64,000 bases of DNA. Origin: Salinispira sp. Lineage in GTDB: Bacteria > Spirochaetota > Spirochaetia > DSM-27196 > Salinispiraceae. The stretch covers positions 1-64,000 of the forward strand of contig CBDDDG010000002.1 in assembly GCA_965226555.1 (NCBI GenBank), given 5' to 3'. Shown here one piece after another: positions 764 to 56,322 of this stretch. The translations under genes were made by a program, and so were the position numbers. The notes under the pieces are model-generated. The model saw only the letters and a list, made by a program, of their open reading frames with translations. It did no database searches and was not told the DNA's origin. Position 1 is the first letter of the stretch. The number at the start of each line of letters is the position of its first letter.

Positions 764-1294
764 CTAATCAAGCTCCTCAACAATTATGCTATGGTTAGTA
801 TATATACAAATTTCTCCGGCAATTTCCAAGCTCCGCTTGGCAATTTCGCGGGCTGTGAGCGCGCTTTTATCCAGATAGGCTCGGGCAGCGGCATAGGCAT
901 AGGAACCGCCGCTGCCTATGGCAAGTGTTCCGGTTTCGGGCTCAATGACATCGCCGGTACCGGAAATAAGGAGAATTTTCTCCCGTGAGGCTACCAGCAG
1001 AAGAGCATCGAGCCTTCGAAGCGTGCGGTCTGTCCGCCAGAGCTTGGCAAGCTCAACCGCAGCCCGTGTAACATCGCCATTGTATTCCCGCAGGCTTTCT
1101 TCAAATTTATCGAAGAGGGTAAAGGCATCGGCCGTGGCGCCGGCGAAACCCGTAAGTACTTTTTCATCATAAATTTTACGTACCTTTTTCGCGTTTCCCT
1201 TTACGATGGCGTTACCCATTGTTACCTGCCCATCTCCTGCCATGGCTGTTTTACCGTCTTTTTGAACAGCAATAATAGTTGTACTGTGCATCAT
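764..1294 (-). CDS. hslV: ATP-dependent protease peptidase subunit HslV
   Basis: [33 protein letters not shown] motifs; ATG 1294 overlaps the xerC stop (ATGA). Confidence 0.95.
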
Positions 1295-2271
1295 TTCCCC
1301 CATTTTTTCTCCGTTGTTCGTGATGTTCGTGAACTTCGTGATGTTCGTGAACTGTGCGGATGTGAACACTCATAAATCTCCCGTAATTTTCCAAGACTTG
1401 TATGCGTATATATTCCCGTTGTGGAGAGGTTCCGATGTCCGAGCATTTCCTGAACAAACCGGATATCGGCACCGCCATTCATGAGATGTGTCGCAAAACT
1501 GTGTCGGAATTTATGTGGGTAAATATGATTTTTCATCATGTATCCTAATTTCTCAAGTATATACTGTATTCCCCGAATACTTAAAGCCTCTCGACGATTA
1601 TTGATAAAAAGATTTTTCAGATGATCCTGATTCTGCAGATAATCGCGGCGAAGCGGGAGATAGTTACGGAGGGCGGAAATGGCATGATCGTTGAGAAACA
1701 CAAACCGTTCCTTTCTTCCCTTTCCCGTAACGAGAATCCGCCGTCTTTTTTCCTGAATGTGAAAAAGCTGTATGCCCTGCAATTCACTGAGACGGCAACC
1801 GGTGGAATAAAAAAGCTCCATGATCAGATAGTTTCTGGCGCCCGCAAAGGAATGCGCCTGCATTTTCATTTCCCCCAGAATATTACTGATATCTGCTTCA
1901 AAAAAAAATTCCGGAAGGTTTCGGGAGGTTCTGACACCCTTTACCGAAAATATCTGAGTAGTATCTTCATTATTCTGTCTTCCCAGATAGCGATAGAATC
2001 CTTTTATTGCCGACAATGCCCGATTCATACTCCTCCCATTCATTCCCTTCTGTCCGAGAAAGGCCATATATGATCGGAGTTTTCGGGGATCAGCTCGGGA
2101 ACCGGCGGGCACATTGATATGCGGATCGGCGGGCACATCGTCCTCCGCTCTCCCATCTCCGAACCACTGCGCATAGGCGCTGAGATCATGAGTATAGGAC
2201 CTGATGCTCCGGGGAGAAAGTCCCCGAACAGTTGATAGATATTCAAGATACTTTCTCATTGCGTATTCCAT
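1291..2271 (-). CDS. xerC: Tyrosine recombinase XerC-like
   Basis: [37 protein letters not shown] motifs. Start placed at MEYAM; the upstream ORF extension runs through a palindromic repeat. Confidence 0.85.
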
Positions 2272-2319
2272 ACTATAACTGTCGGCATGAGAAGAGAACT
2301 GCCGTATTATCTTTACGAT

Positions 2320-2372
2320 AACTTTTGCTACTGGAAATTGCGCAAGCGCAATTTTCCAATGCAAAACTTTGT
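2320..2372. repeat. Solo nested palindrome of the dispersed element family
   Basis: AACTTTTGC-TACT-GGAAATTGCGC-AA-GCGCAATTTTCC-AAT-GCAAAACTTTGT; matches 5241-5300, 22719-22779 and 50550-50606. Confidence 0.9.
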
Positions 2373-2386
2373 TTACGAAAATTTGT

Positions 2387-3358
2387 TTACGCATAATCTC
2401 CACGCAGATAACGCAGAATTTCTACCGCATTATCCATGGCTGGAGCGCCGTGTTCATACAATTGTCTGCCGCCCTCATTTCTCCGTGAATTGAGTGTGTC
2501 AGGCATAACAAAAACATCCCTGCCCTGCTCAAGAGCAAAGTCGACCGTTATGAGCGCGCCGGATTTCTCAGGCGCCTCCACAAGCATCAAGCCCTCCGAC
2601 ATACCCGATATAATGCGGTTTCGCTCAGGGAAGCGGAAGGGTGCCGGTCGGGTTCCGGGAGGATATTCGCTTACCAATGCCCCTCCGTTCTGCAACATTT
2701 CGCATGCAAGATTAAAATGGGCGTGGGGATAGATATAATCGCAGCCATGACCGAGCACAGCAATAGTGCAGCCCCCAGTATCAATTGCGCCCCTGTGAGC
2801 AGCCGAATCTATGCCCCTGGCCAGCCCCGAAACGAGAACAATGCCCCTTTCGCTCAGCTCCCGGGAAACCCTTCGCGCGCAGGAGACGCCGACACCGCTG
2901 GGCTTGCGGGTACCGACCACCGCAAAGCACAGCCGGCCATTGAAAAGCTCGCGCGGTAATTCCGCAGAACCCGCAGGCGCAGGCTCGCCGGAATGCTCAC
3001 CCCCGCCGGAACCCGAACGCTCGCCGCCGGAGCCCCCGCCCCCCGTGTAGCGTACGTACAGAGCAAATGGCGGATCATAAACATTTCTCAATACATGAGG
3101 ATACGCAGGGCTCCAAATCGGAACAAAGAAACGCCCGGAACCCTCAAGCCAGGACCCATCGCTTCGCGCGCCCTCCAGCGCGGCGCGTGGGTCATATTTC
3201 CCTCCGCGGCCGGCGCCGCAAATTCCAAGGCGCCGTAAAACAGAGGTACTCATGCGGAGAAATTCCCTTTCTCCAGGTTTCATTCTCCAGAGGGCAAGCT
3301 TTTCGCTGGTACGGAGAAACGAAATTCGGTGAATGGCATATAAAAGTAGAGTTTTCAT
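2387..3358 (-). CDS. dprA: DNA-processing protein DprA/Smf
   Basis: AVVGTRKPS, VSGLARGIDSAAH, FPERNRIISG, EAPEKSGALIT motifs. Confidence 0.95.
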   Translation of the reverse strand: MKTLLLYAIHRISFLRTSEKLALWRMKPGEREFLRMSTSVLRRLGICGAGRGGKYDPRAALEGARSDGSWLEGSGRFFVPIWSPAYPHVLRNVYDPPFALYVRYTGGGGSGGERSGSGGGEHSGEPAPAGSAELPRELFNGRLCFAVVGTRKPSGVGVSCARRVSRELSERGIVLVSGLARGIDSAAHRGAIDTGGCTIAVLGHGCDYIYPHAHFNLACEMLQNGGALVSEYPPGTRPAPFRFPERNRIISGMSEGLMLVEAPEKSGALITVDFALEQGRDVFVMPDTLNSRRNEGGRQLYEHGAPAMDNAVEILRYLRGDYA

Positions 3359-4910: not shown

Positions 4911-5240
4911 ACTGTTCCTCCGATAATATACGCTATCATTCCGAGAAATTTTTGCGGAAATTTCTCTTATTTTAGAGCGATCCGTTCTTCCCCGCTCCAT
5001 TCTGCACTGATCGAATTTCCTCATCGCTCAGCCCAGTAACCTTCCGAACGTCATCTGCTGAAAGTCCTATGGAAAACATACTGCGGGCGTTTTTTCTCCG
5101 CTCCTCAATATGCCCCTCAGCGCGGCCTGTTTGCAATCCTTCCTGCCGACCTTTCAGAATGCCTCTCTCCATGCCCTTCGCAATGCCTTCCCTTACGAAG
5201 GCGTTGGTCATGTTATATTGTCCGCATACTGTTTTCTCCT

Positions 5241-5472
5241 ACTGAAACTTTTGCATTGGAAAATTGTGCAGAGCACAATTTCCAGTAGCAAAAGTTTCAC
5301 ATTTGGCAGGCCTCGTTGCGCTTGGCATTCTCTCATTTTGTAGAAAGTTTTGCCACTGAAAAATTGTGCTCTGCACAATTTTTCAATGAGGATTCTCTCA
5401 TCTATACTCTTGATTCTCTCACGGTATAGAAAGTTTTGCCTCAGGCAAAACTTTGTTGCGGCAAAACTTTGT
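5241..5472. mobile_element. Compound palindromic element: 129-bp type II unit with a nested 103-bp type I unit
   Basis: Absent from the paralogue at 41180-41200. Removing it restores FP-R-GENS in frame; no target duplication. Confidence 0.85.
5355..5457. mobile_element. 103-bp type I palindromic element nested in a hairpin loop
   Basis: ACTGAAAAATTGTGC..GGCAAAACTTTGTT. Removing it restores the hairpin GTAGAAAGTTTTGCC-GC-GGCAAAACTTTGT. Confidence 0.85.
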
Positions 5473-5537
5473 CTAGGGAACAGTTCCCTGTCAATTTTCT
5501 CAAACTGTTCATACAGTTTTGGATCTAGATCTTTGAT

Positions 5538-5640
5538 ACCGAAAATTGTGCTCCGCACAATTTTCTAATCTGGATTCTCTCATCTCTATTCGTGATTCTC
5601 TCAAGATATAGAAAGTTTTGCCTGTGGCAAAACTTTTGTT
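5538..5640. mobile_element. 103-bp type I palindromic element
   Basis: ACCGAAAATTGTGC..GGCAAAACTTTTGTT. Removing it restores the Rpn codons GY|IKDL; no TSD. Confidence 0.88.
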
Positions 5641-5736
5641 ATAACCTAGCACACTCTCTGCTAGATCAGTAAAGTCTTGTGAAGACAGACCGTTCAGGAG
5701 CTGCGCAATCTCTTTCAGCCCCTCAGCATCCATCTC

Positions 5737-5839
5737 ACTGAAAATTGTGCTCTGCACAATTTTCAAATGAGGATTCTCTCATCTATACTCTTGATTCTCT
5801 CAAGGTATAGAAAGTTTTTCCTAAAGGAAAAACTTTGTT
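5737..5839. mobile_element. 103-bp type I palindromic element
   Basis: ACTGAAAATTGTGC..AAAACTTTGTT. Removing it gives GAGATAAT|GAGATG, as in the empty site at about 41028-41041. Confidence 0.9.
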
Positions 5840-6474
5840 ATTATCTCGCATTATATACCACAACGCAGTCGATGTATATCGTTTTTCATCGGAACGCCAT
5901 GCCAACTGCTTTTTGTCCATTCGCCCCAGATCGCGCACAATGCCTTCCGCTCGGGGTCTGACAGGAAGGGGGCGCTGACAACGAGATCGCAGTGAAGGTT
6001 CTTTTTTCCTGCAATGTAGCTGGGGGTTTCAATGCGGATTTTGTCCAGGTCCATCTTGGCAAGTGTTGTATCCTCACAGAACAGTCGCAGCAGGTCGGGA
6101 ACCATCAGGGGGTTTTTGTAAGCAATCTTGAAGGCTAGGTCGTGGATGTGGCCTGTGCTGTGGGATGATTTTTTCATAAACATTCCTCCTATATATATCA
6201 AACGGGAGAAATGCTATTTCTGAATATGTTTTCTGAAAAAAATTTATTTTTTTTCGGGATGGGGCAGGCGGGGGTTTCACATGTTTGAATTTTGAAGGTT
6301 GTGCATTAAAATACTGCCCAATCCCCTTTATTTTGTCAATTTTCGCCACCGGAAGGCGTAAATGATCCCAAATGTCAGATGGTGGAATTGCCGTGCAACG
6401 GTCTCTGTATGAGAAGACATTGATTACCTAACTTGTCGAGTTAACACTACCGGAGGATGCCAACATGCATGCTC

Positions 6475-6532: not shown

Positions 6533-9500
6533 CTACCAGACTCCCGTTGGATCCACGGCAAACACAGAGAAACCATTATCTTCCTCTCCTGGTACAAACA
6601 AATAAGTAACGCCATTAACTACCGCGGTTGTTGCCCCGTACGCTCCGTTAAGTTCCAGAGTGGAATTATCGCTCACAAGATCGACAAGGGTAAGACTACC
6701 GTTACTATTCGCCGTAAATACATTGACACTGTCATCGTCCTTCGCTGTGACGAACAGATAGGTGGTACCGCCAATCTTCGCAGTCGTTAGACCGTTGGCT
6801 GTATCAAGCTTTGATCCCTGTGAGCCATCATTAATATTGAAGCGATTCGTGAGGTACCCCCCAATGGCAGTGTGTATATCAAATACACTAATACCGTCAT
6901 CAACAGCCCCCGCGACATATAAATAGGTTGTGTTGCCAACAACCGCAGTTGTTAGATCAGCAGCTCCATCAAGTTCCCATGTAGAGCTGTCGGAGTAATT
7001 TCTGCCCGGCAATCCCGCATCGCTGTTCCACCAGTCACCGTTATTATTTACTGCTTTAAAACCGCTGATACCGTCATCGTTATATCCTGCAATATACATG
7101 TAGAGGTTACTCCTAACCCAGACAGTCGTTATGGCATGAGCTCCGTCAAGATGCAAGCCGCCACCATCAGTTCTCCTGCCATCACCAGATATCTCCGTAA
7201 ATGTCAGATTCCCATTACCCGCTCTGCTTACCCTGAAGGTGCTGAAACCATCATCATCTACTCCAGCGACCACAACATAGGTGGTACTCCCAAGGACAAA
7301 GGTCTTTATATCAATTGCCCCATCAAGCTCCTTAGTGCCTCCCCTTCCGTCATGAGTAACACGGCCTTTATGAACAAGGTTCCCCGAACTGAGTACCTGA
7401 TACGCGCTGAAACCGTCATCGGTTCTCCCCGCAACAAACAGATAGGTGGTACCGCCAATAACAGCGGTTGTTAGACCGCTGGCTCCGCCAAGTTCCACGG
7501 TATCGCCACTGCCATAGTCTGCTCCGTCATCAACCTCATAGGTAACACGCGTGACTGTCCCTCCGCTGTTTACCCTGTACACCGTAACACCATCATCATC
7601 ATATCCTGCGACAAAAAGGTAGGTGGTACCGCCAACTACCGCAGTTGTTACTGCTCTGGCTCCAGCGAGCGGAATGGTGCTATTATCGCGGATGTTTACG
7701 GTATTTCTCAGTATGGATAGCGGCTGGGAGACAACAAGGTTCGAAAAAGCACTCCAGCCGATTGCATTTCTTGCCCGCACCTGAGCGGAGTAACTTCTGC
7801 CGTTTACCAGTCCGGTAATGGTGGAGCTGGTAGTTGTGGGTCCAGTGCTGATGTACGTGTAGCCTTGAAAGCCATGTGACCAATATCTCATATCATACCC
7901 CCGAATGGCGCTTCCGCCGTTACTCGGCGCCGTCCATGAAACTTTAAGCTTTCCGTTCCCCACTTTAACAGTCGGTGTATTCGGCTTGGCAGGAGTGGCG
8001 GCGGGGGTTGCTGTTGCGCTGTCCGACCATGCGCCATTGCCGCGCACATTCCGCGCGCGCACCTGTACGGAGTAGCCACTGCCGTTTATCAGTCCGGTAA
8101 TGATGTGGCTTGTGCCGCTGATACCGGAGTTAATTGGCGTCCATGCCCCGCTGCCTCTGCGATATTGCAGATCATACCCGGTAATGGCACTTCCGCCGTC
8201 GTTCGGCGCAGACCAGTTTACCGTAAGTCTTCTGTCACCCGGGGTAACCGTTGGGTCAGCAGGTTTGAGAGGAACCGTAGACGGAGTTGCTTTAGCTACC
8301 TGCGACCAATTACTCTCGCCGCGTGCGTTCTTTGCGCGAACATCCACCTCATATTCTTGACCGTTTGTTAAGCCGGTAATGGTATGGCTTGTGTTTGTGC
8401 CAATGCCGGAGGTGATATAGGTCCACGGGGTTGTACCAACCCGTCTATAGCTCAGGTGATACGCGGTAATGGGGCTCCCGCCATTGTTCGGCGCAGTCCA
8501 GCTTACCGTAAGTCTTCCGTTTCCCGGAACAAGGGTTGGCGCATTCGGCGTGGAAGGAGTTGTGGAAGGGGTTGCTATTACGCTGCCCGACCAGCCGCCT
8601 TCTCCTACCGCGTTCTTTGCGCGCACCTGTACGGAGTAGCTACTGCCATTTGTCAGTCCGTAGATAATACGGTTTGTGTTTGTGCCAATGCCGGAGGTGA
8701 TATATGACCACACTCCGCCTTTACGGTAGCGCAGATGATATGCGGTAATGGCGCTACCGCCGGTATCGGCCGGCGCAGTCAGCGCAGTCCATCGTACCGT
8801 AAGCCGGGCATTCCCCACGGTGAGCGTGGGAGCGCTCATGGTCTTCGGAACAGTAACAGGAATTGCCTCAGCAGCTAATGACCAGAGCCCCGGATCCACC
8901 GCGTTGACGGCGCGCACGCGTACGTAGTAGGTGGTGCCGTTTGTTAATCCGGTAATGGTGTGGCTTGTGCCGCTTATATCGGAATCAATTAACAACCAGT
9001 CTACGCCGTCATCACTATACTGGAGGTGATACTCGGTAATGGCGCTGCCGCCATCGTCATTCGGCGCAGTCCATGAAACTTCAAGCTCTCCGTTCCCCGC
9101 GGTAAGCGTTGGCTTGGCCGGCGCGCCGGGAACGGTCGCCGGGGTTGCTGTTGCGCTGCCCGACCATGCGCCCCTTCCTTGCGCGTTCTTGGCGCGCACC
9201 TGTACGGAATAGCTGTCGCCGTTGTCCAGTCCGGTAATGGGGTGGCTTGTGCCGCTGATGCCGGTGGTAATGGATGTCCATGCCCCGCTGTTGCCCTTGC
9301 GGTATTGCAGATCATATCCGGTAACTGCGCTGCCGCCATTGTTGGTCGGCGCAGACCAGGAAGCAGTGAGCTGAGTGTCATCTACTGCGAGCGTTGGCTT
9401 AGCCGGCGCGCCGGGAACGGTCGCCGGGGTTGCCGATGTGCTATCCGACCATGTGCCCTCGCCCTGTGCGTTCTTTGCGCGCACCTGCACGAAGTACGTG

Positions 9501-11020
9501 TTGCCGTTTGTTAATTGTCGTATGATATGGCTTGTACTGAGTCCGATACCGGAGTCGATTACCGTCCAGTTACTGCCGCCGCTTTCGCGATGCCGCAGAT
9601 GATACTCAACAACCGCGCTGCCGCCAGTGTCACTCGGCGCAGACCAGGAAACGGTAAGCTGAGTGTTCCCTTGTGTGATCGTGGGGGCATCCGGCGCTTC
9701 AGGTACTGCGGCGGGGGTTGCTGTCGCGCTGCCCGACCATGCGCCCCATCCTTGCGCGTTCTGTGCGCGCACCTGTACGGAATAGCTGTCGCCGTTGTCC
9801 AGTCCGGTAATGGGGTGGCTTGTGCCGCTGATGCCGGTGGTAATTTGCGTCCATGCCCCGCTGCCTCTGCGGTATTGCAGCTCATACCCGGTAACTGTGC
9901 TGCCGCCATTGTTGGTCGGCGCCGTCCATGCGGCTATAAGCCGACTGTTTCCCACGGTGAGCGTTGGTATGGCTGGCGCGGCAGGTACGGTTGCAGGGAT
10001 TGCTACGGCAGGTTCCGATGGGTTTCCCTCTCCCTGAGCATTGACAGCGTATACCTGTACTGCGTACTCGGTACCGTTTGTTAGGGGGGTGATAACATAA
10101 GATGTAGAGGTAATACCGGAAATGGTTTTTACCGTACTGTCTGTCCAGCTTCCTGCCGGAATGGCGGCGGTAACCGCGTGATATTGCAGTGCATAGGAGT
10201 CAACGGTACCGGACGGCGCAGTCCATGAGGCGGTAAGTTGCCCATTTCCCACTGCGAGCACGAGACCAGTCGGCACTAAGGGAACGTTAATGGGGGTTGC
10301 CGTGGTCGATGTTGACCATGCGCCAACTCCCGGGCCATTCCCCGCATCCTCAGTTACTGAATTCACGGCGCGCACCTGTACATAATATTCAATGCCGTTT
10401 GTTAGTTCCTCAATGGTGTGGCTTGTATCAGTAGCATCAGAATCGACAGACGGAGAAATCGTCCACTGTCCTTGCGGGCTGGAGGGGCGATACTGCACTT
10501 CATACCGAATAATAGCGTTTCCGCCATTGTCCGGCGCCGTCCATGTTGCGGTAAGTTGACTATTCCCCACTCTGAGGTCTGGAGCGCTCATCTTAGAGGG
10601 AACGGTGGCAGGGGTTATTCTTTCGCTCAATGGCGACCATTCACCCGCGCCATCGCTGTTCTCGGCGCGCACTTGCACGAAGTACGTGGCGCCGTTTGTT
10701 AATCCTCGTATAATATGGCGTGTATTGAGTCCGATACCGAAGTCAATGAGGGTCCATTTACTGGCGCCGTCCGCGCTATGGCGAAGGTGATACTCGGTAA
10801 TTGCGCTGCTGCCCGTATATTCCGGCGCAGCCCATGCAGCAGTTAGTTGCCCATTCCCCGCTTCAAGGGTTGGGGCAAGCATTACTCCTGGTGCGGTTTT
10901 TGTGGGGGGGGGGGGGGGGGGGGTGATATCATCTACGACCGGTATTGGACATCCGGCAAGTAATGCGATGAAAATTGTGCAGAATATGACAAGGCTTCCC
11001 TTACATAATTTGAAATTCAC
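6533..11020 (-). CDS. Large surface lipoprotein with 11 fibronectin type III domains and a C-terminal beta-propeller-like repeat region
   Basis: AGGAG RBS plus GTG at 11020; LLAGC lipobox; 11 copies of W.AP..GGS.IT.Y..GL.NG..Y.V.VRA.N..G; C-terminal repeats TTA.IGGTTYLFV.G..DDG. Confidence 0.9.
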   Translation of the reverse strand: MNFKLCKGSLVIFCTIFIALLAGCPIPVVDDITPPPPPPTKTAPGVMLAPTLEAGNGQLTAAWAAPEYTGSSAITEYHLRHSADGASKWTLIDFGIGLNTRHIIRGLTNGATYFVQVRAENSDGAGEWSPLSERITPATVPSKMSAPDLRVGNSQLTATWTAPDNGGNAIIRYEVQYRPSSPQGQWTISPSVDSDATDTSHTIEELTNGIEYYVQVRAVNSVTEDAGNGPGVGAWSTSTTATPINVPLVPTGLVLAVGNGQLTASWTAPSGTVDSYALQYHAVTAAIPAGSWTDSTVKTISGITSTSYVITPLTNGTEYAVQVYAVNAQGEGNPSEPAVAIPATVPAAPAIPTLTVGNSRLIAAWTAPTNNGGSTVTGYELQYRRGSGAWTQITTGISGTSHPITGLDNGDSYSVQVRAQNAQGWGAWSGSATATPAAVPEAPDAPTITQGNTQLTVSWSAPSDTGGSAVVEYHLRHRESGGSNWTVIDSGIGLSTSHIIRQLTNGNTYFVQVRAKNAQGEGTWSDSTSATPATVPGAPAKPTLAVDDTQLTASWSAPTNNGGSAVTGYDLQYRKGNSGAWTSITTGISGTSHPITGLDNGDSYSVQVRAKNAQGRGAWSGSATATPATVPGAPAKPTLTAGNGELEVSWTAPNDDGGSAITEYHLQYSDDGVDWLLIDSDISGTSHTITGLTNGTTYYVRVRAVNAVDPGLWSLAAEAIPVTVPKTMSAPTLTVGNARLTVRWTALTAPADTGGSAITAYHLRYRKGGVWSYITSGIGTNTNRIIYGLTNGSSYSVQVRAKNAVGEGGWSGSVIATPSTTPSTPNAPTLVPGNGRLTVSWTAPNNGGSPITAYHLSYRRVGTTPWTYITSGIGTNTSHTITGLTNGQEYEVDVRAKNARGESNWSQVAKATPSTVPLKPADPTVTPGDRRLTVNWSAPNDGGSAITGYDLQYRRGSGAWTPINSGISGTSHIITGLINGSGYSVQVRARNVRGNGAWSDSATATPAATPAKPNTPTVKVGNGKLKVSWTAPSNGGSAIRGYDMRYWSHGFQGYTYISTGPTTTSSTITGLVNGRSYSAQVRARNAIGWSAFSNLVVSQPLSILRNTVNIRDNSTIPLAGARAVTTAVVGGTTYLFVAGYDDDGVTVYRVNSGGTVTRVTYEVDDGADYGSGDTVELGGASGLTTAVIGGTTYLFVAGRTDDGFSAYQVLSSGNLVHKGRVTHDGRGGTKELDGAIDIKTFVLGSTTYVVVAGVDDDGFSTFRVSRAGNGNLTFTEISGDGRRTDGGGLHLDGAHAITTVWVRSNLYMYIAGYNDDGISGFKAVNNNGDWWNSDAGLPGRNYSDSSTWELDGAADLTTAVVGNTTYLYVAGAVDDGISVFDIHTAIGGYLTNRFNINDGSQGSKLDTANGLTTAKIGGTTYLFVTAKDDDSVNVFTANSNGSLTLVDLVSDNSTLELNGAYGATTAVVNGVTYLFVPGEEDNGFSVFAVDPTGVW
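10904..10923. repeat. G20 homopolymer inside the Fn3 gene (poly-Pro)
   Basis: 20 consecutive G, 8 codons after the lipobox Cys. Confidence 0.9.
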
Positions 11021-11087
11021 GATGTAACTCCTAACTGCCAGCATACCTATCTTATAACTGGAATAGTAATATATATTATAATAGAGC

Positions 11088-11160
11088 GTTTTGCAGAGCA
11101 AAATTTTATGTATGCAAAACATTCTATTAGTCCGAGATTGCTGCGCGGCAACAGTTCTCA
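11088..11160. repeat. Degenerate palindromic-family hairpins upstream of the Fn3 gene
   Basis: GTTTTGC-AGA-GCAAAATT and GAGATTGCTGC-GCG-GCAACAGTTCTC; the second resembles 23846-23872. Confidence 0.55.
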
Positions 11161-11224: not shown

Positions 11225-12476
11225 TGGGATATTAAGGTTTGAACAGACCCCACTTTGACCTATTATGCGATCATTTCTTCCGAGTGCCAAGCCCTCCATC
11301 GCTCAAGCGTCGGCCGTGTGAGCCGTTGCTCCATTATGATCGGCTTGAGCCGGAGAATATCACTATCCACATTGGTATTCCGCTGCCTCAAAAGATCCAG
11401 CGGAGTCCCTTTGCGGTAGGTGTTGAACCGCCGGTAATTGAAATCTATCTGATACTCCTCGGCTTCCTTAAGAAACTCATTGAGCTTTGGATTCATCACC
11501 TGACTGTAGAACTCATCCTCAATGAGCCGGTGCGAGGACTCGACAGAACTGTTCCATGTGCAATGCCCGGGCGGAATACGCCGATACTCGACACCCGCCT
11601 GTATGAGCGCCTGCTCAAACCCCGACGTTCGGGTCTTGCTCAGATGCCGAACGGTGAACTCTGCCCCGTTATCGGTCTGAACCGTTATGCCGTTGACAAG
11701 GTCTCCGCCGCGATTCCGCAGGTGCTCCAGCAGGTACTCGGCGAACAAGGTTGTTACCATACTGCTCTTCTCATTGGCGAAGGCGTACCACAGAGCCCCT
11801 GTCGCCCGATCCCGGGCGGTTATCTGGTACTTCGGAACGTCTAAACACTTCTGAGAAAACCGCATAGCGGGAATGTCCGTCAGATACTTGATATCAATCT
11901 GAATGCACTCGCCGAACTTCATCCTGTCGGTTACCTCCCGCAAATCTCTCTTGGGTAGCGCCTTCGGCTTCTTTGTTTTCCGCGCCCCTATCTGCTTTAG
12001 CGTCTTGATAATCGTCGGCAGGCTGTACTTCCCGCCAACTTCCGTCTGCAACTGCTTTTGCACCTGAGTTCCAATGATTTTGTTGTGATTCCGATTCTTG
12101 GTCTGGGCAAGACTCTCGAGATGACACCGGTGCCCGAATTTCATCTTCATCGGATGATTGGTCGTGCCCCGCTTTTTGTCTTCAAGCCCCTCGCCGGATT
12201 CAAAGCGCCGAACCCACCGCCGCACCGTGTTGCGCGACACCTCGAACTCCCGAGCAGCCGCCTTGATCGAATGCTCCTGGGCATACCGAACCATCCGCAA
12301 CCGCCAATCATACATCGAAGCCGCCTGATACTTCCGAGACTTGAGATGATACTGAGAATATGTGATACTACTGTTCACTGTTTCCCTCCTTTTATGTTTT
12401 ATACAACCCCCAGTGTATACGAATAACCTTCGTTTTACACTGGGGAGGAGGGGTCTGTCCAAAGGTTTATATCCCA
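11225..12476 (-). mobile_element. IS481-family insertion sequence
   Basis: Imperfect 27-bp TIRs TGGGATATTAAGGTTTGAACAGACCCC / TGGGATATAAACCTTTGGACAGACCCC; 15-bp direct repeat AAAAAGATAATTATC at 11210-11224 and 12477-12491. Confidence 0.88.
11263..12378 (-). CDS. IS481-like DDE transposase
   Basis: N-terminal HTH (IKAAAREFEVSRNTVRRW); QIDIK, QTDNGAEF and VESSHR DDE motifs; GTG start after AGGAGG. Confidence 0.9.
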   Translation of the reverse strand: MNSSITYSQYHLKSRKYQAASMYDWRLRMVRYAQEHSIKAAAREFEVSRNTVRRWVRRFESGEGLEDKKRGTTNHPMKMKFGHRCHLESLAQTKNRNHNKIIGTQVQKQLQTEVGGKYSLPTIIKTLKQIGARKTKKPKALPKRDLREVTDRMKFGECIQIDIKYLTDIPAMRFSQKCLDVPKYQITARDRATGALWYAFANEKSSMVTTLFAEYLLEHLRNRGGDLVNGITVQTDNGAEFTVRHLSKTRTSGFEQALIQAGVEYRRIPPGHCTWNSSVESSHRLIEDEFYSQVMNPKLNEFLKEAEEYQIDFNYRRFNTYRKGTPLDLLRQRNTNVDSDILRLKPIIMEQRLTRPTLERWRAWHSEEMIA

Positions 12477-12510
12477 AAAAAGATAATTATCGCTGCGCAA
12501 AGAGTACCAG

Positions 12511-13389
12511 TTAGCGGGGATGATATTTTTGGTGATATTGCTGTAAGGCATTCTTGTCGAGATGTGTGTAAATTTGCGTTGTGCTGATATCAGAATGTCC
12601 GAGAAGCGCCTGCACAGAACGGAGATCAGCCCCCCCTTCGAGGAGATGCGTGGCAAAACTATGCCTGAGTGTGTGAACCGTGGCAGACATTCCCGACTTT
12701 TCAATAAGTTCATGAAAGCGTTTCCACATTCCCTTGCGTGAAAGGCATCCGCCGAAGCGGTTCAAAAAAACACAACCGGCGCTGCGGGCAGGGTTATAGA
12801 GCTCCTTCCGACCTTCATTAAGGTAGCGTTCACACCAGTACAGGGCCTCGTCTCCCATGGGAACAATTCGTTCCTTGTTGCCCTTTCCCCGAATACGGAG
12901 CAGTTTTTCACTCATATACACCCGGTCAATGCTCAGGTCCACTGCCTCCGAAATACGCAGACCGCAGGAATATATGAGTTCAAACAGACATCGATCCCGC
13001 AGTCCAAGAGCCGAGTTCATATCTATGTGCTCAAAAATGAACTCAATTTCGTCAATGCCCAGCACTCCGGGCAGTCCATGGGAAATTTTAGGACTCTCCA
13101 GTGAAACACAGGGGTTGCCTGAGCACATATGTTCTTTTACAAGCCAGTCAAAAAATTGCCGCAGGGAACTAATAACTCGGGCAACTGTCCGTTCAGTAAT
13201 ACCAGCCTTCCGCCGAAAGAGAATGTAGTCCTGTATGCGCAGTTCATTGACCCGTGAAAGATCGGCGCCGTTCATCCACTCCAGAAACTGCCGAATTTCC
13301 CTGCCGTAGGTTGCTACCGTGCGGGCAGAAAGCTGAAGCTCATAGTGAAGATAACTGACAAACTGCTGTTCCCGATCTCCGTTATTCAT
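12511..13389 (-). CDS. xerD: Tyrosine recombinase XerD
   Basis: [56 protein letters not shown]. Confidence 0.92.
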   Translation of the reverse strand: MNNGDREQQFVSYLHYELQLSARTVATYGREIRQFLEWMNGADLSRVNELRIQDYILFRRKAGITERTVARVISSLRQFFDWLVKEHMCSGNPCVSLESPKISHGLPGVLGIDEIEFIFEHIDMNSALGLRDRCLFELIYSCGLRISEAVDLSIDRVYMSEKLLRIRGKGNKERIVPMGDEALYWCERYLNEGRKELYNPARSAGCVFLNRFGGCLSRKGMWKRFHELIEKSGMSATVHTLRHSFATHLLEGGADLRSVQALLGHSDISTTQIYTHLDKNALQQYHQKYHPR

Positions 13390-14654: not shown

Positions 14655-14700
14655 ACTCGAAAATTGTGCTCTGCACAATTTCCAGTAGCAAAACTTTCTA
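14655..14700. repeat. Palindromic-family element overlapping the ftsA stop codon
   Basis: GAAAATTGTGC-TCT-GCACAATTTCC-AGTA-GCAAAACTTTCTA. Confidence 0.88.
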
Positions 14701-22718: not shown

Positions 22719-22779
22719 ACTGAAACTTTTGCTACTGGAAATTGCGCTTGCGCAATTTTCCAATGGGAAAGTTTCACAT
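22719..22779. repeat. Palindromic-family element (type II half)
   Basis: ACTGAAACTTTTGCTACTGGAAATTGCGC-TT-GCGCAATTTTCCAATGGGAAAGTTTCACAT. Confidence 0.88.
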
Positions 22780-23845: not shown

Positions 23846-23872
23846 TGAGATTGTTGCGCGGCAACAATTTCA
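23846..23872. repeat. Palindrome variant next to the OmpA-family RBS
   Basis: TGAGATTGTTGC-GCG-GCAACAATTTCA. Confidence 0.6.
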
Positions 23873-24161
23873 TCTGCAATAGAGAATACCATTCATTCAT
23901 TGAGAATGTCAAACCCCCATATGAACCTTCCTGCTACTGTTCAAAATGCTTCTGTTGGGAATGTGGAATGATCTTCATTTTTCCACCTGTACGGGATTTA
24001 TCATTTCCCTGATATTCAGTTTACTCATTATAATAAGTTGGATATTGATAATCGAGAGGATATTGCCTATAGTGATATTCCAAAACCGCTTGGCGAAATT
24101 GTTTTGACACTAATACCAGCTGTATTGTATATTCTGATATTGAAGCATAAGGAAATATGGA

Positions 24162-28760: not shown

Positions 28761-29024
28761 TTTTTCTTCCTCCTGATAAAACACTATTGGGAAGCTCTGA
28801 AAACACGGATACTTCACACTGCATCGCGAAAATAGCGTTTTCAGGCACCCCTGTACTCCATTATCACCAAAAAATAATTTATGTCAAACCCTACTGCAAT
28901 TTTCCAGTGGAATTTAAACCTTTGAGCTTCCCTTCCCCAAAACCTTTGTATCATGTGTGTTCGCACTGGAGAAATATGGTGTATACTAAAGATGCAATTT
29001 GAATACTTAGGGTCATCATAAAGT

Positions 29025-36254: not shown

Positions 36255-36438
36255 GAAATTTTTGCATTGATAAAATTTTGCCCGTGGCAAAACTTTCCGA
36301 CAGTAAGAGTAAAGGATAACGAGTTATGGAACATTGGTCAAGAGACGGTTTCAGATATCTGCGAATTCACCTTTTGGTATGGACATTTGTTTCTGAATGA
36401 TTACACTAAAAGAAACTTTCTTTTGCTACTGGAAATTG
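36255..36438. repeat. Two degenerate palindromic-family pieces (36255-36298, 36411-36438)
   Basis: AAAATTTTGCC-CGT-GGCAAAACTTT and CTTTTGCTACTGGAAATTG. Confidence 0.7.
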
Positions 36439-37995
36439 ATGTTTACATTCTTCTGCAATGTCGATATTATGTGCTATACTCTAAGAAAGACTTCAATTGG
36501 AGGTAATGTATGCAGATTGTAAGCATTAACCAAAAAACAAGAAACCTTTCTACGCCCTCTGTGCTGTGGGGTTTTCTTATCATACTGACAGTGCTCATAG
36601 CGGCCTGCCCAATGCCGGAACCGGAACCAATTACGGAACCGGAGCCCATGGACATGGATACATCGCCCTTAATAGGCGTGTGGACCGCGGATGGTTATAC
36701 CATAGAATTCACCGCCACAACGTACATAGACAAGTTTTCGGGTTTGACCTGTGATTACACGGATAACGGAAACTCAATTACGTTCAGTAATTGTATGGGA
36801 TTAGAAGGAGCGGAAAACCTTAATGGGGCAACGGTAGAGTATACCATTGATGGAGATACCTTAACATTTGATGGCACTGCCTATACCCGGCAGAATTCAG
36901 ATGTACCTGAACCAACCGTGCCGGGCACCATGGCTGCTCCAACCTTTGAAGTGGGGAATAAGCAACTAACGGTTAACTGGACTCCGCCGGAAGAAACCGG
37001 CGATAGTGAAATTACCGCGTACCATGTGCAGCACAAACAAAGCAACGGAGAATGGCCAGCGGACGACACCGCCGCTATTACTCCTCCTACCTCACGCTCC
37101 ACCATCATTACAGGGCTGACAAACGGCAACCCCTACGATGTGCGGCTGCGCGCGGTCAATGCGCAGGGTTCGGGGAACTGGTCGGAATCTTCCACAGAAA
37201 CCCCTATTACCGTTTCCTTGGCGCCGACTGCGTTCATGCTCACAGCGGGAAATACGACAATTACCGCAACATGGGCTGCACCGACCGATACTGGCGACAG
37301 CGCCATTATTCGCTATGAACTGCAACATCGCGAAGTTGGAACAAGCACGTGGGAAGCTACTGTTTCTATTGCTGTGTATGCCAACCACACCTACACCCAC
37401 CTCATCCCCAACCTGACAAACGGCACCGAGTACGAGGTGCGGGTCTACGCTGTCAATACAGAGGGCAATGGCAACCCAGCGACTGGCACCGCAACCCCCG
37501 AAATCCCCGCTACCGTTCCCAGCGCTCCGAATGCTCCTACGCTCACAGCCGGAAACACCGAACTTGAGGTAGCATGGACAGCGCCCGATGATGACGGTGG
37601 CAGCGCCATTACCGGGTACAAAGTGCAACACAGAGTAAACACCGCCAGCGAATGGTTAACGTCCGACACAGCGAACATCGACACTATTACTGATGGTACT
37701 GCTACAAGCTCCACCATTACCGGGCTGACAAACGGCAATAGTTACGATGTACGGGTGCGCGCCGTCAACGCTGTGGGTGATGGCGGCTGGTCGGTATCTG
37801 CCACTCTAACCCTTTCTACTGCTCCCGCCGCTCCAACCGGTCTGACGCTCGTACCAGTGCACCAATCTATTACAGCCGCATGGACAGCGCCGAATAACAA
37901 CGGCGGCAGTGCCATTACCGGGTATGACCTGCAGTTTCGCGTATCCGCAGCAGCTCTGGTAGAGGGCGACTGGCAGACCGAAACTACTACTAATA

Positions 37996-39335
37996 GAAAC
38001 CTTTGAATAACTCCATTATATCTGCCGGTAGTCTTTTTTCCACGCAGAAAAAATTATTCATCGTTTTTCACGTTATTCTCTTCAGCATCCTCCGTCTTTT
38101 TTCGGCGCGATACGCGCTATATTCGTTCTTTTTTTCATCTTTTTTCAGTATTTCCCTCATTTCCGGCAGCAGTACCGCCATAAGGGCACAGCTATCCTGT
38201 TGTTATGCCGCAACCGCAGAGTTTTCCGGCGCCATGTTCCCCATTCGCCGTTTCATGCCGATCATCTGTTTCAGATTATACATAATCGCCATACACATAA
38301 ACCGACTCTGATTCCTCTGAACTCCCATATACCGCGCCTTTCTTGCGCCGCAATGGAGTTTGCTCAGCCCAAAAAACCGCTCCACCGTATTCCTTACGCG
38401 CGACCGCCCGTAATTCGCCTGCTTCTGCTCATCGGTTAACGGTGTGTTCCGATACGCCCGCTCATGTATTTGATTCTCTATGCCCATCTCCTCAAGCATC
38501 GCAGCAATCGCTTTACTCCGGTACGCGGCATCCGCGTACACCACCGTCTCATTTCCCATAATCAATTCGCCAAATAGTTTGCTGTCATGAATATTGGCCG
38601 CAGTCACCAGCAGTTTCTTCGCCCGTCCCTTCTCATTTACCGTCACGTGTATCTTGAAACCGTAGGTTGTTCGTACCGTTCCATCGCCTCCCTTCTTACT
38701 CGCGTAGGCCGCTTCAGGATCCTGTGTCGATTCTCCTGCGTCATTTTTTTTCTTCCGATGCCGCGAAGCCTGTATGACACTCGCATCAATTATGCTGACT
38801 GTGCCCCGGTGCACTTCACAATCCTGCGTGTCCAACTGCGCATTCACCGTGTCCAAGAGCGCACTGAGAATATTCTTACGGGTCAGTTGTTCCCGAAACC
38901 GCCATATCGTGGAATGATCGGGAGTATCATCGAGAACATTGAGCCCCACAAAACGCTTGTATGCCAAGTCGCAGGCAAGCGCATTTTCCATGCCTTCATC
39001 GCTGAGATTCTGCCACGATTGCAGCAACAGCACTTTGAACATCATAACCGGATGATATCCTTTCGCGCCCATCGATTTGTTGTTGATAGCACAGAGCATC
39101 TCCCCAATTTCCTTCCAATTGATCAGTTCATACAGGCTATCGAAGCGTTTCAGCGCTTTACTTTCCTGAATACCCTGATTGATCAGCGATCCATGATGTT
39201 CTTTCCAATTATTTCCCATTGTGTTCTCCTGTTTCAGCGCCGGACAGCGCGCAATACAACCCGATTGCTCATTCCCAGCTCTCTGTGTGAATTTTCTTCA
39301 AAATACCATTATTCCCGATGATGTGCAAAGGTTTC
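37996..39335 (-). mobile_element. IS5-family insertion sequence
   Basis: Terminal IR GAAACCTTTG / CAAAGGTTTC around a transposase gene. Confidence 0.88.
38203..39219 (-). CDS. IS5-family transposase
   Basis: PDHSTIWRFR, IIDAS, YGFKIH, YADAAY, RNTVERFF. Confidence 0.93.
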   Translation of the reverse strand: MGNNWKEHHGSLINQGIQESKALKRFDSLYELINWKEIGEMLCAINNKSMGAKGYHPVMMFKVLLLQSWQNLSDEGMENALACDLAYKRFVGLNVLDDTPDHSTIWRFREQLTRKNILSALLDTVNAQLDTQDCEVHRGTVSIIDASVIQASRHRKKKNDAGESTQDPEAAYASKKGGDGTVRTTYGFKIHVTVNEKGRAKKLLVTAANIHDSKLFGELIMGNETVVYADAAYRSKAIAAMLEEMGIENQIHERAYRNTPLTDEQKQANYGRSRVRNTVERFFGLSKLHCGARKARYMGVQRNQSRFMCMAIMYNLKQMIGMKRRMGNMAPENSAVAA

Positions 39336-39826
39336 AAGTAATACAAGCTACCGCATTACGGCATTGAAAGACAGTACCGCGCTGGCAAACGGCACCGCGT
39401 ATAATGTGGAAGTATGGGTTCGCGCACAGAACGCGGCGGGCGATGGCGCGTGGCTGAAATCGACTCCTTCTGCCTCGGTAACTCCTGCTGATGTTGTTCC
39501 CAACAAGCCCGCACCTCCAACACTTACATTAGATAGTACGGGTGGATTTACTATTGCATGGACAGCGCCGACCGACAATGGCGGCAGTGCCATTACCGCG
39601 TATCAACTGCGATTGAGCGTAAATGATGCAGACTGGACTGAAAGTGCTATTTTGAACGTTATCTTGAGCACATATAATGCTTCAAGCAATACTAACTCAG
39701 GCGACACATACGTGATGCAAGTACGTGCCATTAACGCTACGGGTAATAGTGAGTGGTCGGAATCGTCTAATACGCTTACTATTCCATAACTGCACGCTGT
39801 AGACGCCGGCGCGGTACATGAGTGAG

Positions 39827-39910
39827 CGCGCCGGCTGGTCGGAGGCTCGCGCCTCCTGGGCTGGTCGCGCTTCCGCGCTGCTCGCCCGGGCATCCGGCTT
39901 GCCATGCGGC
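39827..39910. repeat. GC-rich hairpin repeat (second family)
   Basis: GGCTGGTCGGAGGC-TCGC-GCCTCC..GCTCGCCCGGGCATCCGG shared with 41505-41700. Confidence 0.8.
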
Positions 39911-40327: not shown

Positions 40328-41482
40328 ATGAAAAAATCATCCCACAGCACAGGCCACATCCACGACATAGCCTTCAAGATCGCCTACAAAAACCCCCGGA
40401 TGATTCCCGACCTACTGCGGCTGTTCTGTGAGGATACAACGCTTACCAAGCTGGACATGGACAAAATCCGCATTGAAACCCCCAGCTACATTGCAGGAAA
40501 AAAGAACCTTCACTGCGATCTCGTTGTCAGCGCCCCCTTCCTGTCAGACCCCGACCGGAAAGCCCTTTTTATTACTGAAAATTTTGCTCCGCAAAATTTT
40601 CCAATGAGGATTCTCTTATCTATACTCTTGATTCTCTCACGGTATAGAAAGTTTTGCCTTGGAAAATTGTGCAAGCACAATTTCCAGTAGCAAAACTTTC
40701 GTATTGAACACAAAAGCTACCAGCACAAACATGCGCTCACTCAGATTGATAATTATCAGCATGCCCTCAGAAACAGCAATGTGTATAATGAAAATGATGC
40801 TATCTATATACTTCTGTTCTACCACGGAAAAAAGGAATGGAACCTCCCACGCTCATTTTACAGTTCACATGGAAATCCAACCTCCGAATCCCTTACCGAA
40901 GGCACGGTGGATGTCAAGGTGAAAGTGTCGTACATTGTGCGCGATCTGAGGCGAATGGACAAGAAGCAGTTGGCATTGCGCTCCGATGAAAAACGATATA
41001 CATCGACTGCATTGTGGTATATTATGAGAGATAATGAGATGGACACTGAGGGGCTGAAAGAGATTGCGCAGCTCCTGAACGGTCTGTCATCACAAGACTT
41101 TACTGATCTGGCAGAAAGTGTGTTAGGCTATCTAAAAGATTTGGGACTGTATGAACAGTTTGAGAAAATTAACAGGGAACTGTACCCTGAAGGAGAAAAC
41201 AGTATGCGGACATATAACATGACCAACGCCTTCGTCAGGGAAGGCATTGCGAAGGGCCGGATTGAGGGTCTTGAACAGGGAATGGAGAAAGGTATTCTGA
41301 AAGGCCTTGAGCAAGGACAAGCTGAGAACCAGCGTGAGATTGCATTCAAAATGCTCAGGAAGGGTATGTCGATGGATATTATTCATGAGTTAACCGAGCT
41401 CAGCGAAGATGAAATTCGAGCATTTCAGAAAAACGGCCAGAAAAATGGCAGGGGAAACGGTAGGAAAAACGATAAAGAGTAG
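40328..41482 (+). pseudogene. Rpn/YhgA-like nuclease, locus 2, with one 129-bp insertion
   Basis: AGGAGG RBS; HDIAFK..CD..KALFI|IEHKS..LFYHGKKEW..EG-rich tail; in-frame TAG inside the insert. Confidence 0.9.
40574..40702. mobile_element. 129-bp type I palindromic element variant
   Basis: Same spacer as the 103-bp units, with an extra hairpin nested in the right arm. Confidence 0.88.
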
Positions 41483-41504
41483 CAACGCAGCCACGTCGGC
41501 GTTG

Positions 41505-41700
41505 CGCCTCCTGGGCTGGTCGGAGGCTTGCGCCTCCTGCTCGCCATGCGTCCGGGCTGGTCGGAGGCTTGCGCCTCCTGCTCGCCATGCGTCCGGGCTG
41601 GTCGGAGGCTTGCGCCTCCTGCTCGCCATGCGTCCGGGCTGGTCGCGCTCCGCGCTGCTCGCCCGGGCATCCGGTTCGCCATGCATCCGGGGCTGGTCGG
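41505..41700. repeat. Three tandem 41-bp GC-rich hairpin units plus a flanking module
   Basis: CGGAGGCTTGCGCCTCCTGCTCGCCATGCGTCCGGGCTGGT at 41521, 41562 and 41603. Confidence 0.92.
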
Positions 41701-49714: not shown

Positions 49715-49981
49715 TTAATGCGATCCGTTCCGCACTGTCCGCATTTCCTCATCGCTCAGCCCGGTAATCCTCTGAACAGCCTCAGTTGACAAGCCTTCCG
49801 AAAACATACTGCGGGCCGTTTCTCGAATGCCTCTCGCCATTCCCAGCTCAAGACCTTCAACCTTGCCTCTCTCCATTCCTTCCGCAAGACCTTCAACCTT
49901 GCCTCTCTCCATTCCTTCCGCAAGACCTTCAACCCGTCCTTGGTTGACAAACCAATCACTCATCTGAACTTTTTTCATCAT
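49715..49981 (-). CDS. Putative RpnS-like C-terminal small protein (88 aa)
   Basis: AGGAG upstream of ATG 49981; intact frame with (VEGLAEGMERGK) repeats and a C-terminal ITGLS.EE motif. Confidence 0.6.
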   Translation of the reverse strand: MMKKVQMSDWFVNQGRVEGLAEGMERGKVEGLAEGMERGKVEGLELGMARGIRETARSMFSEGLSTEAVQRITGLSDEEMRTVRNGSH

Positions 49982-49994
49982 AACCCTTTCTCCT

Positions 49995-50124
49995 CCAGAA
50001 ACTTTTGCATTGGAAAATTGTGCAGAGCACAATTTCCAGTAGCAAAAGTTTCACATTTGGATAACTCTATGTGCTTAGCATTCTCGCATTTTGTAGAAAG
50101 TTTTGCCTGTGGCAAAACTTTGTT
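49995..50124. mobile_element. 130-bp type II palindromic element
   Basis: Removing it restores N-P-E-G-E-R in frame; no TSD. Confidence 0.88.
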
Positions 50125-50549
50125 TCGGGATTAATTTCCCTGTTGATTTTTTCAAAGCGTGTATCCAGTTTCAAGTCTTCATCGCCTGTCTTACTGACTT
50201 TCCGCATAATATAGCACAGGGCTCCCCCTGTCAACACAACCCCATCTGACCCACGGGTAAACTCCTCCTCACTCATCCTATTCACATCGACCATAACAGG
50301 CCTATTGAGAACCTTTGGCCTCGCAAGGTATTTTTTCATCATTGTGTACAATTTTTCCGGTATGTGTGTATGCACATCCCCTGAACTGTAGAAACTGAGA
50401 TCTCCTTCCCATAGTGCTTCGCCATGATACCATAGAACCAGAACAAGAAGGTCGGTCTGCGCCTGAAATGTCCTGCTGTTTATGAGGGCTTTCTGGTATT
50501 TATCGAACTGTTCGCTGACCTTCGGATCAAACATGCTTTTGTGCTCAAT

Positions 50550-50606
50550 ACGAAAGTTTTGCTACTGGAAATTGTGCTTGCACAATTTTCCAAGGCAAAA
50601 CTTTGT
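50550..50606. mobile_element. 57-bp nested palindrome replacing about 70 Rpn codons
   Basis: Reverse complement matches 40649-40702; joins HDIAFK directly to IEHKS. Confidence 0.85.
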
Positions 50607-50921: not shown

Positions 50922-50995
50922 ACCATATAGACGGGTTACATATGAACGGTGAATATGAGAAATTTTTGTAATTATTTTTATTATTTTGAGATATT

Positions 50996-51095
50996 ACAAA
51001 GTTTTGCATTGAAAATTGTGCTTGCACAATTTCCAGGAGCAAAACTTTCTATGAAATAGGAGAATGCTAAGCACAAAGACAGCATTCCAAATGGG
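50996..51095. repeat. Type II element half in the opposite orientation
   Basis: ACAAAGTTTTGC..GCAAAACTTTCTA..GAGAATGCTAAGCAC..CCAAATG matches the reverse complement of 50055-50124. Confidence 0.85.
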
Positions 51096-51210
51096 ATATT
51101 AGCCTGATCCTGCCGCATGGCGAGCCGGGCGACATGAGGGCAAGAGCGAGCAGCCCCGCGCCTGCCTGAGTTGACTTGCCATTTTTCAATAACTACTGCG
51201 GGTTATGAAA

Positions 51211-56089: not shown

Positions 56090-56248
56090 GGCAGATGTAT
56101 TGAGGAAATTGCGCGTTAATTTTGCGCATTCAATGCCGTGGGATGGTTGCAAGCCATTCCTGAGATGTATATAATACCCGCATATCAACGAAATATGATT
56201 TAATTCTGAGTACTATCAAAATATCAGATACATTCTAATTCTAAAAGA

Positions 56249-56288
56249 ACGTTTTGCTCCTGAAAATTTTGCTCTGCAAAAGTTTCTA
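56249..56288. repeat. Degenerate palindromic-family element
   Basis: GTTTTGCTCCTGAAAATTTTGC-TCT-GCAAAAGTTTC. Confidence 0.7.
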
Positions 56289-56322
56289 AATTGTATTTCC
56301 TGAAAAAATATCAGGAGGAATT

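Follow-up and report, generated by a model that had tools for sequence, protein, structure and literature searches.

A self-nesting family of small hairpin-ended elements in a Salinispira genome and its probable IS5-family partner

REP/RAYT systems, REPINs and IS200/IS605-derived PATEs are short palindromic sequences with hairpins near their ends, which leave no target duplications and need a Y1 enzyme. Other miniature elements (MITEs) have been paired with DDE insertion sequences by their ends. In Porphyromonas gingivalis, the non-coding MITEs BrickBuilt and MITEPgRS/MITE464 have ISPg1/ISPg9/ISPg4-type ends and were assigned to IS5-family partners by 12-bp GAGAC(C/T)(A/T/G)TTGCA ends; they are present in about 10–20 copies and have modular interiors with tandem direct repeats (PMC4596501, PMC2575886). 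ISNme1 of the IS1106 group is the proposed parent of the Neisseria MITE ATR, which has about 19 copies and for which the available part of the source describes no hairpin ends (PMC4596501). ISAba23, an autonomous element of 1249 bp, has ends GAAACCTTTGCA and GAGACCTTTGCA and 5-bp TA-N-(T/G)A repeats.

Here we describe a hairpin-unit family in a Salinispira sp. assembly of 2.98 Mb (26 contigs, 93.5% complete), starting from a 64,000-nucleotide window, the first 64 kb of contig C2. An initial annotation of this window had reported modular, self-nesting palindromic elements that insert without target duplication, and had likened them to HUH/Y1 systems. Much of its anatomy is borne out: the three 103-bp stretches are present with both hairpins at the positions given, and the second unit type occurs both at 5241-5472 (232 bp, comprising a 129-bp unit and a nested 103-bp unit) and, as described, at 49995-50124. 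Nesting is also real, with one unit in the hairpin loop of another and hairpin A within hairpin B, and further copies are spread over the window, which holds 15 family blocks from 2320 to 56297. Redrawn to the conserved arms, the window units have cores of 98 and 125-126 bp. The features of the window are as follows.

2320-2376, no strand assigned: solo nested hairpin of the 54-bp type, left arm degenerate
4993-6177, minus strand: disrupted Rpn/YhgA-like (Transposase_31) gene, with three insertions and a deletion of ~240 bp
5244-5471, plus strand: 126-bp type unit (A-in-B nested hairpin, spacer, hairpin B) with a second unit in its right loop
5358-5455, plus strand: 98-bp unit (hairpin A, spacer, hairpin B) in the loop of the host unit's hairpin B
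5541-5638, plus strand: 98-bp unit, flanks ATACC/TTATA, bases next to the core foreign
5740-5837, plus strand: 98-bp unit, flanks TCACT/TTATT compared with empty TCATT
14659-14698, plus strand: 40-bp collapsed unit, flanks TACTC/TATTC
22722-22775, no strand assigned: solo nested hairpin, right arm degenerate
36255-36297, plus strand: 43-bp unit with exact 5-bp direct repeat CGACA/CGACA
37996-39335, minus strand: ISa, an IS5-family element of 1340 bp with terminal repeats GAAACCTTTGAA / GAAACCTTTGCA, candidate autonomous partner
38203-39219, minus strand: IS5-family DDE transposase of 338 aa, NF033581 match, D145/D230/E280
40577-40700, plus strand: 124-bp unit (hairpin A, spacer, nested hairpin), flanks TTACT/GTATT compared with empty TTATT
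49998-50122, plus strand: 125-bp unit inside an Rpn-like gene, flanks CTCCA/TTTCG compared with empty CTTCG
50552-50605, plus strand: solo 54-bp nested hairpin
50995-51096, no strand assigned: partial unit (nested hairpin and part of a spacer)
56247-56297, no strand assigned: degenerate solo hairpin

The Rpn/YhgA-like gene at 4993-6177 is a target and no part of the element. The unit at 5244-5471 lies inside this broken gene with flanks CTACT/TCTAG and occurs as the same insertion in 16 paralogous copies; the net gain of the unit in its loop is 4 bp beyond the core. The insertion at 5740-5837 is shared by 18 paralogues, and the unit at 40577-40700 truncates another Rpn-like gene, the remainder of which is at 40781-41482. 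The units are not an assembly artefact, as contigs from public sequencing runs carry both the units and junctions that skip them: the junction 5736->5840, which skips 103 bases, was found in contigs of all four public runs compared (three studies), although such empty junctions may stem from paralogues.

Genome-wide, the family comprises 647 blocks covering 49,784 bp (1.7% of the assembly), of which 265 have an arm bounding both ends. Hairpins A and B have 199 and 187 matches, respectively, when at most two substitutions are allowed, and strict hairpins number 12 in the window compared with none in each of 50 mononucleotide shuffles. Cores start with GAAA(C/G/A)TT(T/G)TGC and end in the inverse of the same sequence, with arms of 11-12 bp; both ends carry terminal inverted repeats GAAA(C/G)TTTTGC(A). 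Two arms pair into a hairpin at each end, which is of type B (27 bp), type A (24-25 bp) or a nested form with A inside B (54 bp). A full unit has two of these ends separated by a ~45-bp spacer, of which there are two kinds, and measures 97-99 or 123-127 bp; shorter solo and collapsed copies are frequent, at 25-27, 39-43 and 54-56 bp. All units are short, gene-less and multicopy, with cores of 25-127 bp. As DNA, the two unit types fold far better than shuffled sequences (z = -9.5 and -6.9). The orientation of hairpin loops varies, and does so even between copies of a single insertion: in the right loop of the 18 copies of the 5740-5837 insertion, 12 read CTAAAG and 6 CTTTAG (12:6), a loop inversion after insertion, and the loop pairs CACAG/CTGTG, CTCAG/CTGAG and TCT/AGA occur across the family.

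This genome has 413 occurrences of the 12-base end motif, whereas no more than four were counted in any of 98 other genomes from the order (range 0-4). We found no match to the hairpin pattern in seven genomes of the host family or in viral contigs, and none to an IS-type variant of the pattern in genome contigs. An Rfam search of positions 5200-5900 returned no family at gathering score; its five weak matches were all far below. Ribosome-binding-site motifs lie within 25 bp of 32/174 sites compared with 6.6% of random positions, a comparison uncontrolled for intergenic location.

Exact 5-bp target duplications recur in many members of the family. Exact 5-bp direct repeats ending at the arms flank 64 of 397 bounded clusters, whereas exact repeats of 4 and 6 bp flank 5 and 2 clusters, respectively. 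With paralogous copies merged, exact repeats remain at 52 of 174 independent sites and comprise 35 distinct sequences, whereas permuting the flank pairing 1,000 times gave a mean of 1.4 and a maximum of 7. The other 122 sites have no exact 5-bp repeat, some of them being mis-bounded or truncated blocks. Pairs of filled and empty sites (n = 170) point to the same length, with gains of 5 bp in 111, 4 bp in 44, 6 bp in 8 and 3 bp in 7, and the commonest spacing of tail-to-head tandem units is 5 bp (16/29 strand counts). The target consensus of the units is T-A-N-T-A-like. Even solo hairpins of 24-28 bp have exact repeats at 8/34 sites. Among full-length sites, those with A at position 12 of both ends, as in ISa, have exact repeats in 16/27 cases and the rest in 3/21 (P = 0.003), a better end match going with exact duplication.

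These data revise the earlier view of the junctions. What had been read as 103-bp units inserted without duplication are 98-bp cores plus a 5-bp gain; at 5740-5837, the empty TCATT and filled TCACT/TTATT describe a 5-bp duplication in which each copy has one base altered, and within the window itself the unit at 36255-36297 has the exact repeat CGACA. No duplication had been seen because all full-length units in the window belong to a class with altered duplications. The clean junctions of the initial annotation therefore stand as a real, non-random subclass, but the absence of duplication does not extend to the family. Nor do the ends it proposed, ACYG and GTT, hold up family-wide: ACY precedes 9 and TT follows 15 of the 64 full-length sites. 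A fixed foot is likewise lacking, with (G/A)TA at 16/64 of these sites, and the 'GTAG-like foot' that had been taken as an HUH trait is most simply the T-A-N-T-A target consensus followed by the first G of the terminal repeat.

We characterized the altered duplications at 21 of 60 site groups, selected for a 5-bp gain, a close empty allele (at most 3 differences in the 50 outer bases) and no nesting, and thus leaving out gains of 4, 6 and 3 bp as well as nested sites; 18 of the 21 were flagged near Rpn genes in an unmasked pass, so the sample is biased towards these genes. Relative to the empty allele, 4 sites are exact, 8 are altered on one side and 9 on both. Mismatches number 18, 18, 3, 2 and 0 with increasing distance from the core, that is, 36 in the inner two bases compared with 2 in the outer two (P = 5e-9), and 35 compared with 3 when the most favourable empty allele is used; background divergence of the outer flanks is 2%. 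The pattern is symmetric (2+1+2), with the central base kept. C stands two bases before the core at 22/39 non-exact full-length sites compared with 5/52 exact sites, and replaces T, A or G of the target. In nested donors, the linker and loop bases preceding arm A are matched by the foreign bases CT and CA. Paralogous copies of an insertion share the same flanks (17/18, 8/9, 9/10 and 5/5) while their loops flip. Sharing of inner flanks rises with the likeness of the cores (P = 0.028), whereas sharing of outer flanks does not (P = 0.35). Non-exact units are also more diverged than exact ones (median 7.5 versus 3, P = 0.019), and foreign inner bases occur mostly in units with poorer ends.

Rpn proteins have been reported to be toxic anti-phage nucleases. 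The genome has 140 matches to the Transposase_31 (Rpn/YhgA-like) profile, often in tandem and many of them broken by units; Rpn coding DNA with 200-bp margins makes up ~8% of the genome. Counted on the MITE-masked genome (60 merged sites, of which two or three at Rpn genes are probably double-counted), 22 non-exact and 1 exact site lie at Rpn genes, compared with 16 and 21 elsewhere (P = 2.5e-5). C-type units are near Rpn genes in 19/29 cases, compared with 4/31 for A/A units. Rpn-like loci in the window are at 4993-6177, 40781-41482 and ~49715-50534, and such genes have C-terminal short repeats resembling those described for the tails of the RpnS antitoxin. Downstream of Rpn-like and fn3 genes, at 41485-41700 and 39810-39900, is a GC-rich array of tandem ~40-bp units that include GGGCTGGTCGG; sequence like this array flanks several MITE copies elsewhere in the genome. 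A protein family with fibronectin-III/DUF285 domains, typical of host-associated surface proteins, is also expanded (window 6533-11122, 36510-38006 and 51211-52929), with 124 ORFs in one cluster.

To find a mobilizer, we compared the genome with itself and catalogued its repeated IS elements together with their termini. The commonest left end of the MITEs matches ISa (12-bp ends GAAAC(C/T)TTTGAA and GAAACCTTTGCA) at 11/12 positions, ISb at 8-9/12 and the other seven IS families compared at 2-7; the G-variant end matches ISa at 10/12 and any other IS at no more than 9. At the right end, 2-4 of the 12 positions are unlike ISa, and the interiors of MITEs and ISa have nothing in common beyond a chance 10-mer. 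T at position 1 and A at position 5 are found in 93% of ISa targets and 70% of MITE targets. The ISa transposase matches the IS5 model NF033581 with 229.3 bits (cut-off, 140), residues D145, D230 and E280 are invariant among 10 aligned sequences, and identity among seven full-length 338-aa copies is 98.8% or higher. Exact 5-bp repeats, mostly beginning with TA, flank 7 of the 10 long ISa copies. The other three, including the window copy, have rearranged flanks; we considered that they might be hybrids, a reading rejected by empty-site checks that show rearrangement. The window copy, inside an fn3-repeat gene, has lost its duplication (flanks TAATA/AAGTA); alignment with empty paralogues suggests that it inserted and that 6 adjacent bp were then deleted. 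Two other public runs have contigs that lack ISa at this site.

The closest named transposase is that of ISAba23 (46% identity over 94% of the query), from which ISa is distinct as an element of 1340 bp. ISAba23-like relatives on three plasmids have the ISAba23 ends GAAACCTTTGCA/GAGACCTTTGCA, and two of the three are flanked by exact 5-bp repeats (TATGA and TACTA). The ISNme1 end, GAGACCTTTGCAAAA, is 1-2 bases from that of ISa (PMC4596501); the comparison with ATR covers the ends. Whereas the initial annotation had seen no mobilizer in the window, ISa at 37996-39335 is thus a candidate. ISb (contig C1 57373-58825 and relatives), a second IS5-like element with ends GAGACCATTGCA/GAGATCATTGCA, has exact 5-bp repeats in 5/5 full copies and, at an end match of 8-9/12, would be a weaker candidate than ISa; many short end fragments of ISb are also present, one at window 23847-23974. 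ISc, a third IS5-like element (contig C21 309807-311294 and window ~28784-28887), is ruled out by its GGGAAGCTCTGG ends, next to which it has a 4-bp TATA repeat, and six further IS families are ruled out by their ends. Many repeats of ~110-125 bp are derived from ISc ends and probably form a second MITE family.

Other classes of enzyme were sought with profiles. Neither Y1/RAYT transposases (PF01797) nor IS110 transposases (PF01548) had a match in the 93.5%-complete assembly, with each control matching in 6 of 14 genomes, and a serine recombinase profile with a working control had none; a Y2 (IS91) profile also had no match in the assembly, but its control matched nowhere either. Tyrosine recombinases comprise a XerC-like protein, a XerD-like protein and one weak fragment, only the first two being full. 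The XerC-like gene (window 1291-2403, beside dprA) and the XerD-like gene (window 12511-13389, after ftsA-ftsZ) have housekeeping contexts, and the small fragment (contig C12 19338-19715, a weak PF00589 match) lies beside an IS481-like end. An IS481-like transposase at window 11263-12477 scores 112 of 224 bits, below the family cut-off; this element has TGGGAT ends, ~17 or more copies and long direct repeats (>10 bp) in several of them. No long autonomous element bounded by the hairpins was found, the 22 candidates proving to be host loci duplicated in tandem, and no intact Rpn gene had both bounding arms and an empty site that would make it the autonomous element.

We conclude that the units are probably a MITE family moved in trans by a resident IS5-family DDE transposase. 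ISa is proposed as the partner because its ends match, its 5-bp repeat is of equal length and its target consensus is similar, features that make it the putative mover. In the respects that can be tested, the units are an IS5-partnered MITE and do not behave as REP/RAYT, PATE or IS110-type elements: they differ from REP/RAYT systems, REPINs and PATEs in having exact duplications and no detected Y1 enzyme, and from IS110/IS1111-derived MITEs in that exact duplications are common and PF01548 has no match. Modular interiors are shared with the P. gingivalis MITEs (PMC4596501, PMC2575886), which are longer and far fewer; the units here have two-arm hairpin ends, lengths of 25-127 bp, hundreds of copies, self-nesting and a class of altered duplications. 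The two-arm hairpin ends, self-nesting, small size and altered-duplication class are new as far as a literature search, with most subscription journals outside it, can show, as it returned no paper describing any of them.

Mechanistically, the target would be cleaved by an IS5-family transposase at positions 5 bases apart on the two strands, and any outward-facing pair of arms could probably act as ends; this would account for the modular build, for nesting and for inner hairpin A serving as a left end. Solo hairpins of 27 and 54 bp are likely to be collapse products of deletion between directly repeated arms, because several combine the left arm of the left module with the remainder of the right hairpin. 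Those with exact repeats are also most simply deletions, although they may have moved independently. For the foreign inner bases we tentatively prefer carry-over from the donor at insertion, in which cleavage at poorer or inner arms would leave ~2 donor bases attached to the non-transferred strand; filling of the 5-base gaps would then retain these bases at the target. PIF/Harbinger is probably kin to IS5. The transposases of mPing and PIF-Harbinger make staggered cuts within the flanking duplication, leaving 5' overhangs (PMC4561436), and piggyBac is reported to mutate non-canonical sites (work cited in PMC4786924), but these enzymes are eukaryotic; what they offer is a precedent for cuts within the flanking duplication. 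In the literature searched, we found no report of flank carry-over by a bacterial IS5 element.

Several explanations of the altered flanks compete with donor carry-over, which fits the symmetric pattern and the uniform flanks among paralogues but has difficulties of its own. None of seven unrearranged ISa and none of five ISb copies has foreign inner bases, and 9/21 sites are altered on both sides, which plain heteroduplex replication would not give and which would need repair towards the carried strand; nor does carry-over predict the higher divergence of the non-exact units and their clustering at Rpn genes. One rival is a history in which the same MITE and transposase made perfect 5-bp duplications and gene conversion later overwrote 1-3 bases beyond the arms, with conversion from empty paralogues keeping the outer bases equal to the target. 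That history is possible but rather unlikely: it agrees with young IS copies all being exact where unrearranged, with non-exact units being more diverged and lying in a multicopy gene family, and with the foreign bases (CT, CA, CC; TT, GT, TC) being common flanks of abundant copies, yet flanks are uniform in up to 18 paralogous copies of one insertion despite loop inversion, the commonest context before arm A (TTG, 273, versus ACT, 91) is never the foreign flank among the 21 sites, and separate events would be needed for each side at many sites. Inversion of a unit or hairpin gave no fit as the source of foreign bases at the few sites checked by hand.

A division of labour, in which exact insertions are made by the IS5 enzyme and C-type units enter by a crossover at the centre of the 5-base spacer in a circle or tandem-dimer junction, would give the 2+1+2 symmetry with its kept central base and would produce two-sided alterations naturally. 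Its second reaction might occur at breaks made by Rpn nucleases (PMC5350276, PMC10400941) or through XerC/D, and Rpn proteins are described as promoting RecA-independent recombination (PMC5350276), which would suit the excess of C-type units near Rpn genes (19/29 versus 4/31) and the 140 Transposase_31 matches. We nevertheless think it improbable. Sites with a hybrid look are found in IS copies and within other units as well, RpnA is reported to be sequence-nonspecific (PMC5350276), and the surplus at Rpn genes may come from old insertions having been tolerated and duplicated. Searches for IS110 and serine recombinases were negative, and the only full tyrosine recombinases are XerC- and XerD-like, with dif sites that the arms presumably do not resemble. 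Least credible by far is the origin first suggested for the units, a single-strand HUH system (Y1/RAYT/IS91) inserting hairpin units without duplication. Strong terminal hairpins speak for it, and a duplication-free drawing of the junctions is possible at the Rpn sites of the window; but 52 sites have exact 5-bp repeats of 35 sequences, the terminal ACY and TT are not conserved, and Y1_Tnp is absent with a working control and an assembly that is 93.5% complete. Target duplications occur at other sites and the ends match both a resident IS5-family element and a described IS group, so the HUH/Y1 assignment is not upheld, while the description of a recently active, non-autonomous, modular and self-nesting family is.

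The wider lesson is that an HUH system should not be deduced from hairpin ends combined with a seeming lack of duplication. The units provide a compact substrate, with a matching intact transposase, for the ISAba23/ISNme1/ISPg1-like subgroup of IS5, for which we found no paper on strand-cleavage chemistry in a search with most subscription journals outside it; the 36-to-2 bias of foreign bases makes the question of cleavage in this subgroup directly testable. A more specific and doubtful proposal, building on donor carry-over, is that a transposase of the IS5/ISAba23 group, working on MITE ends doubled as hairpins, brings ~2 bases of donor flank into either side of the new 5-bp duplication, that units down to 27 bp may be mobile by themselves and that the altered class may be channelled to the ~140 Rpn loci. 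If this were true, the element would write point mutations into its target and carry a short record of its previous site. In this organism, the unit family represents a lineage-restricted burst that has repeatedly broken genes of a greatly expanded Rpn family.
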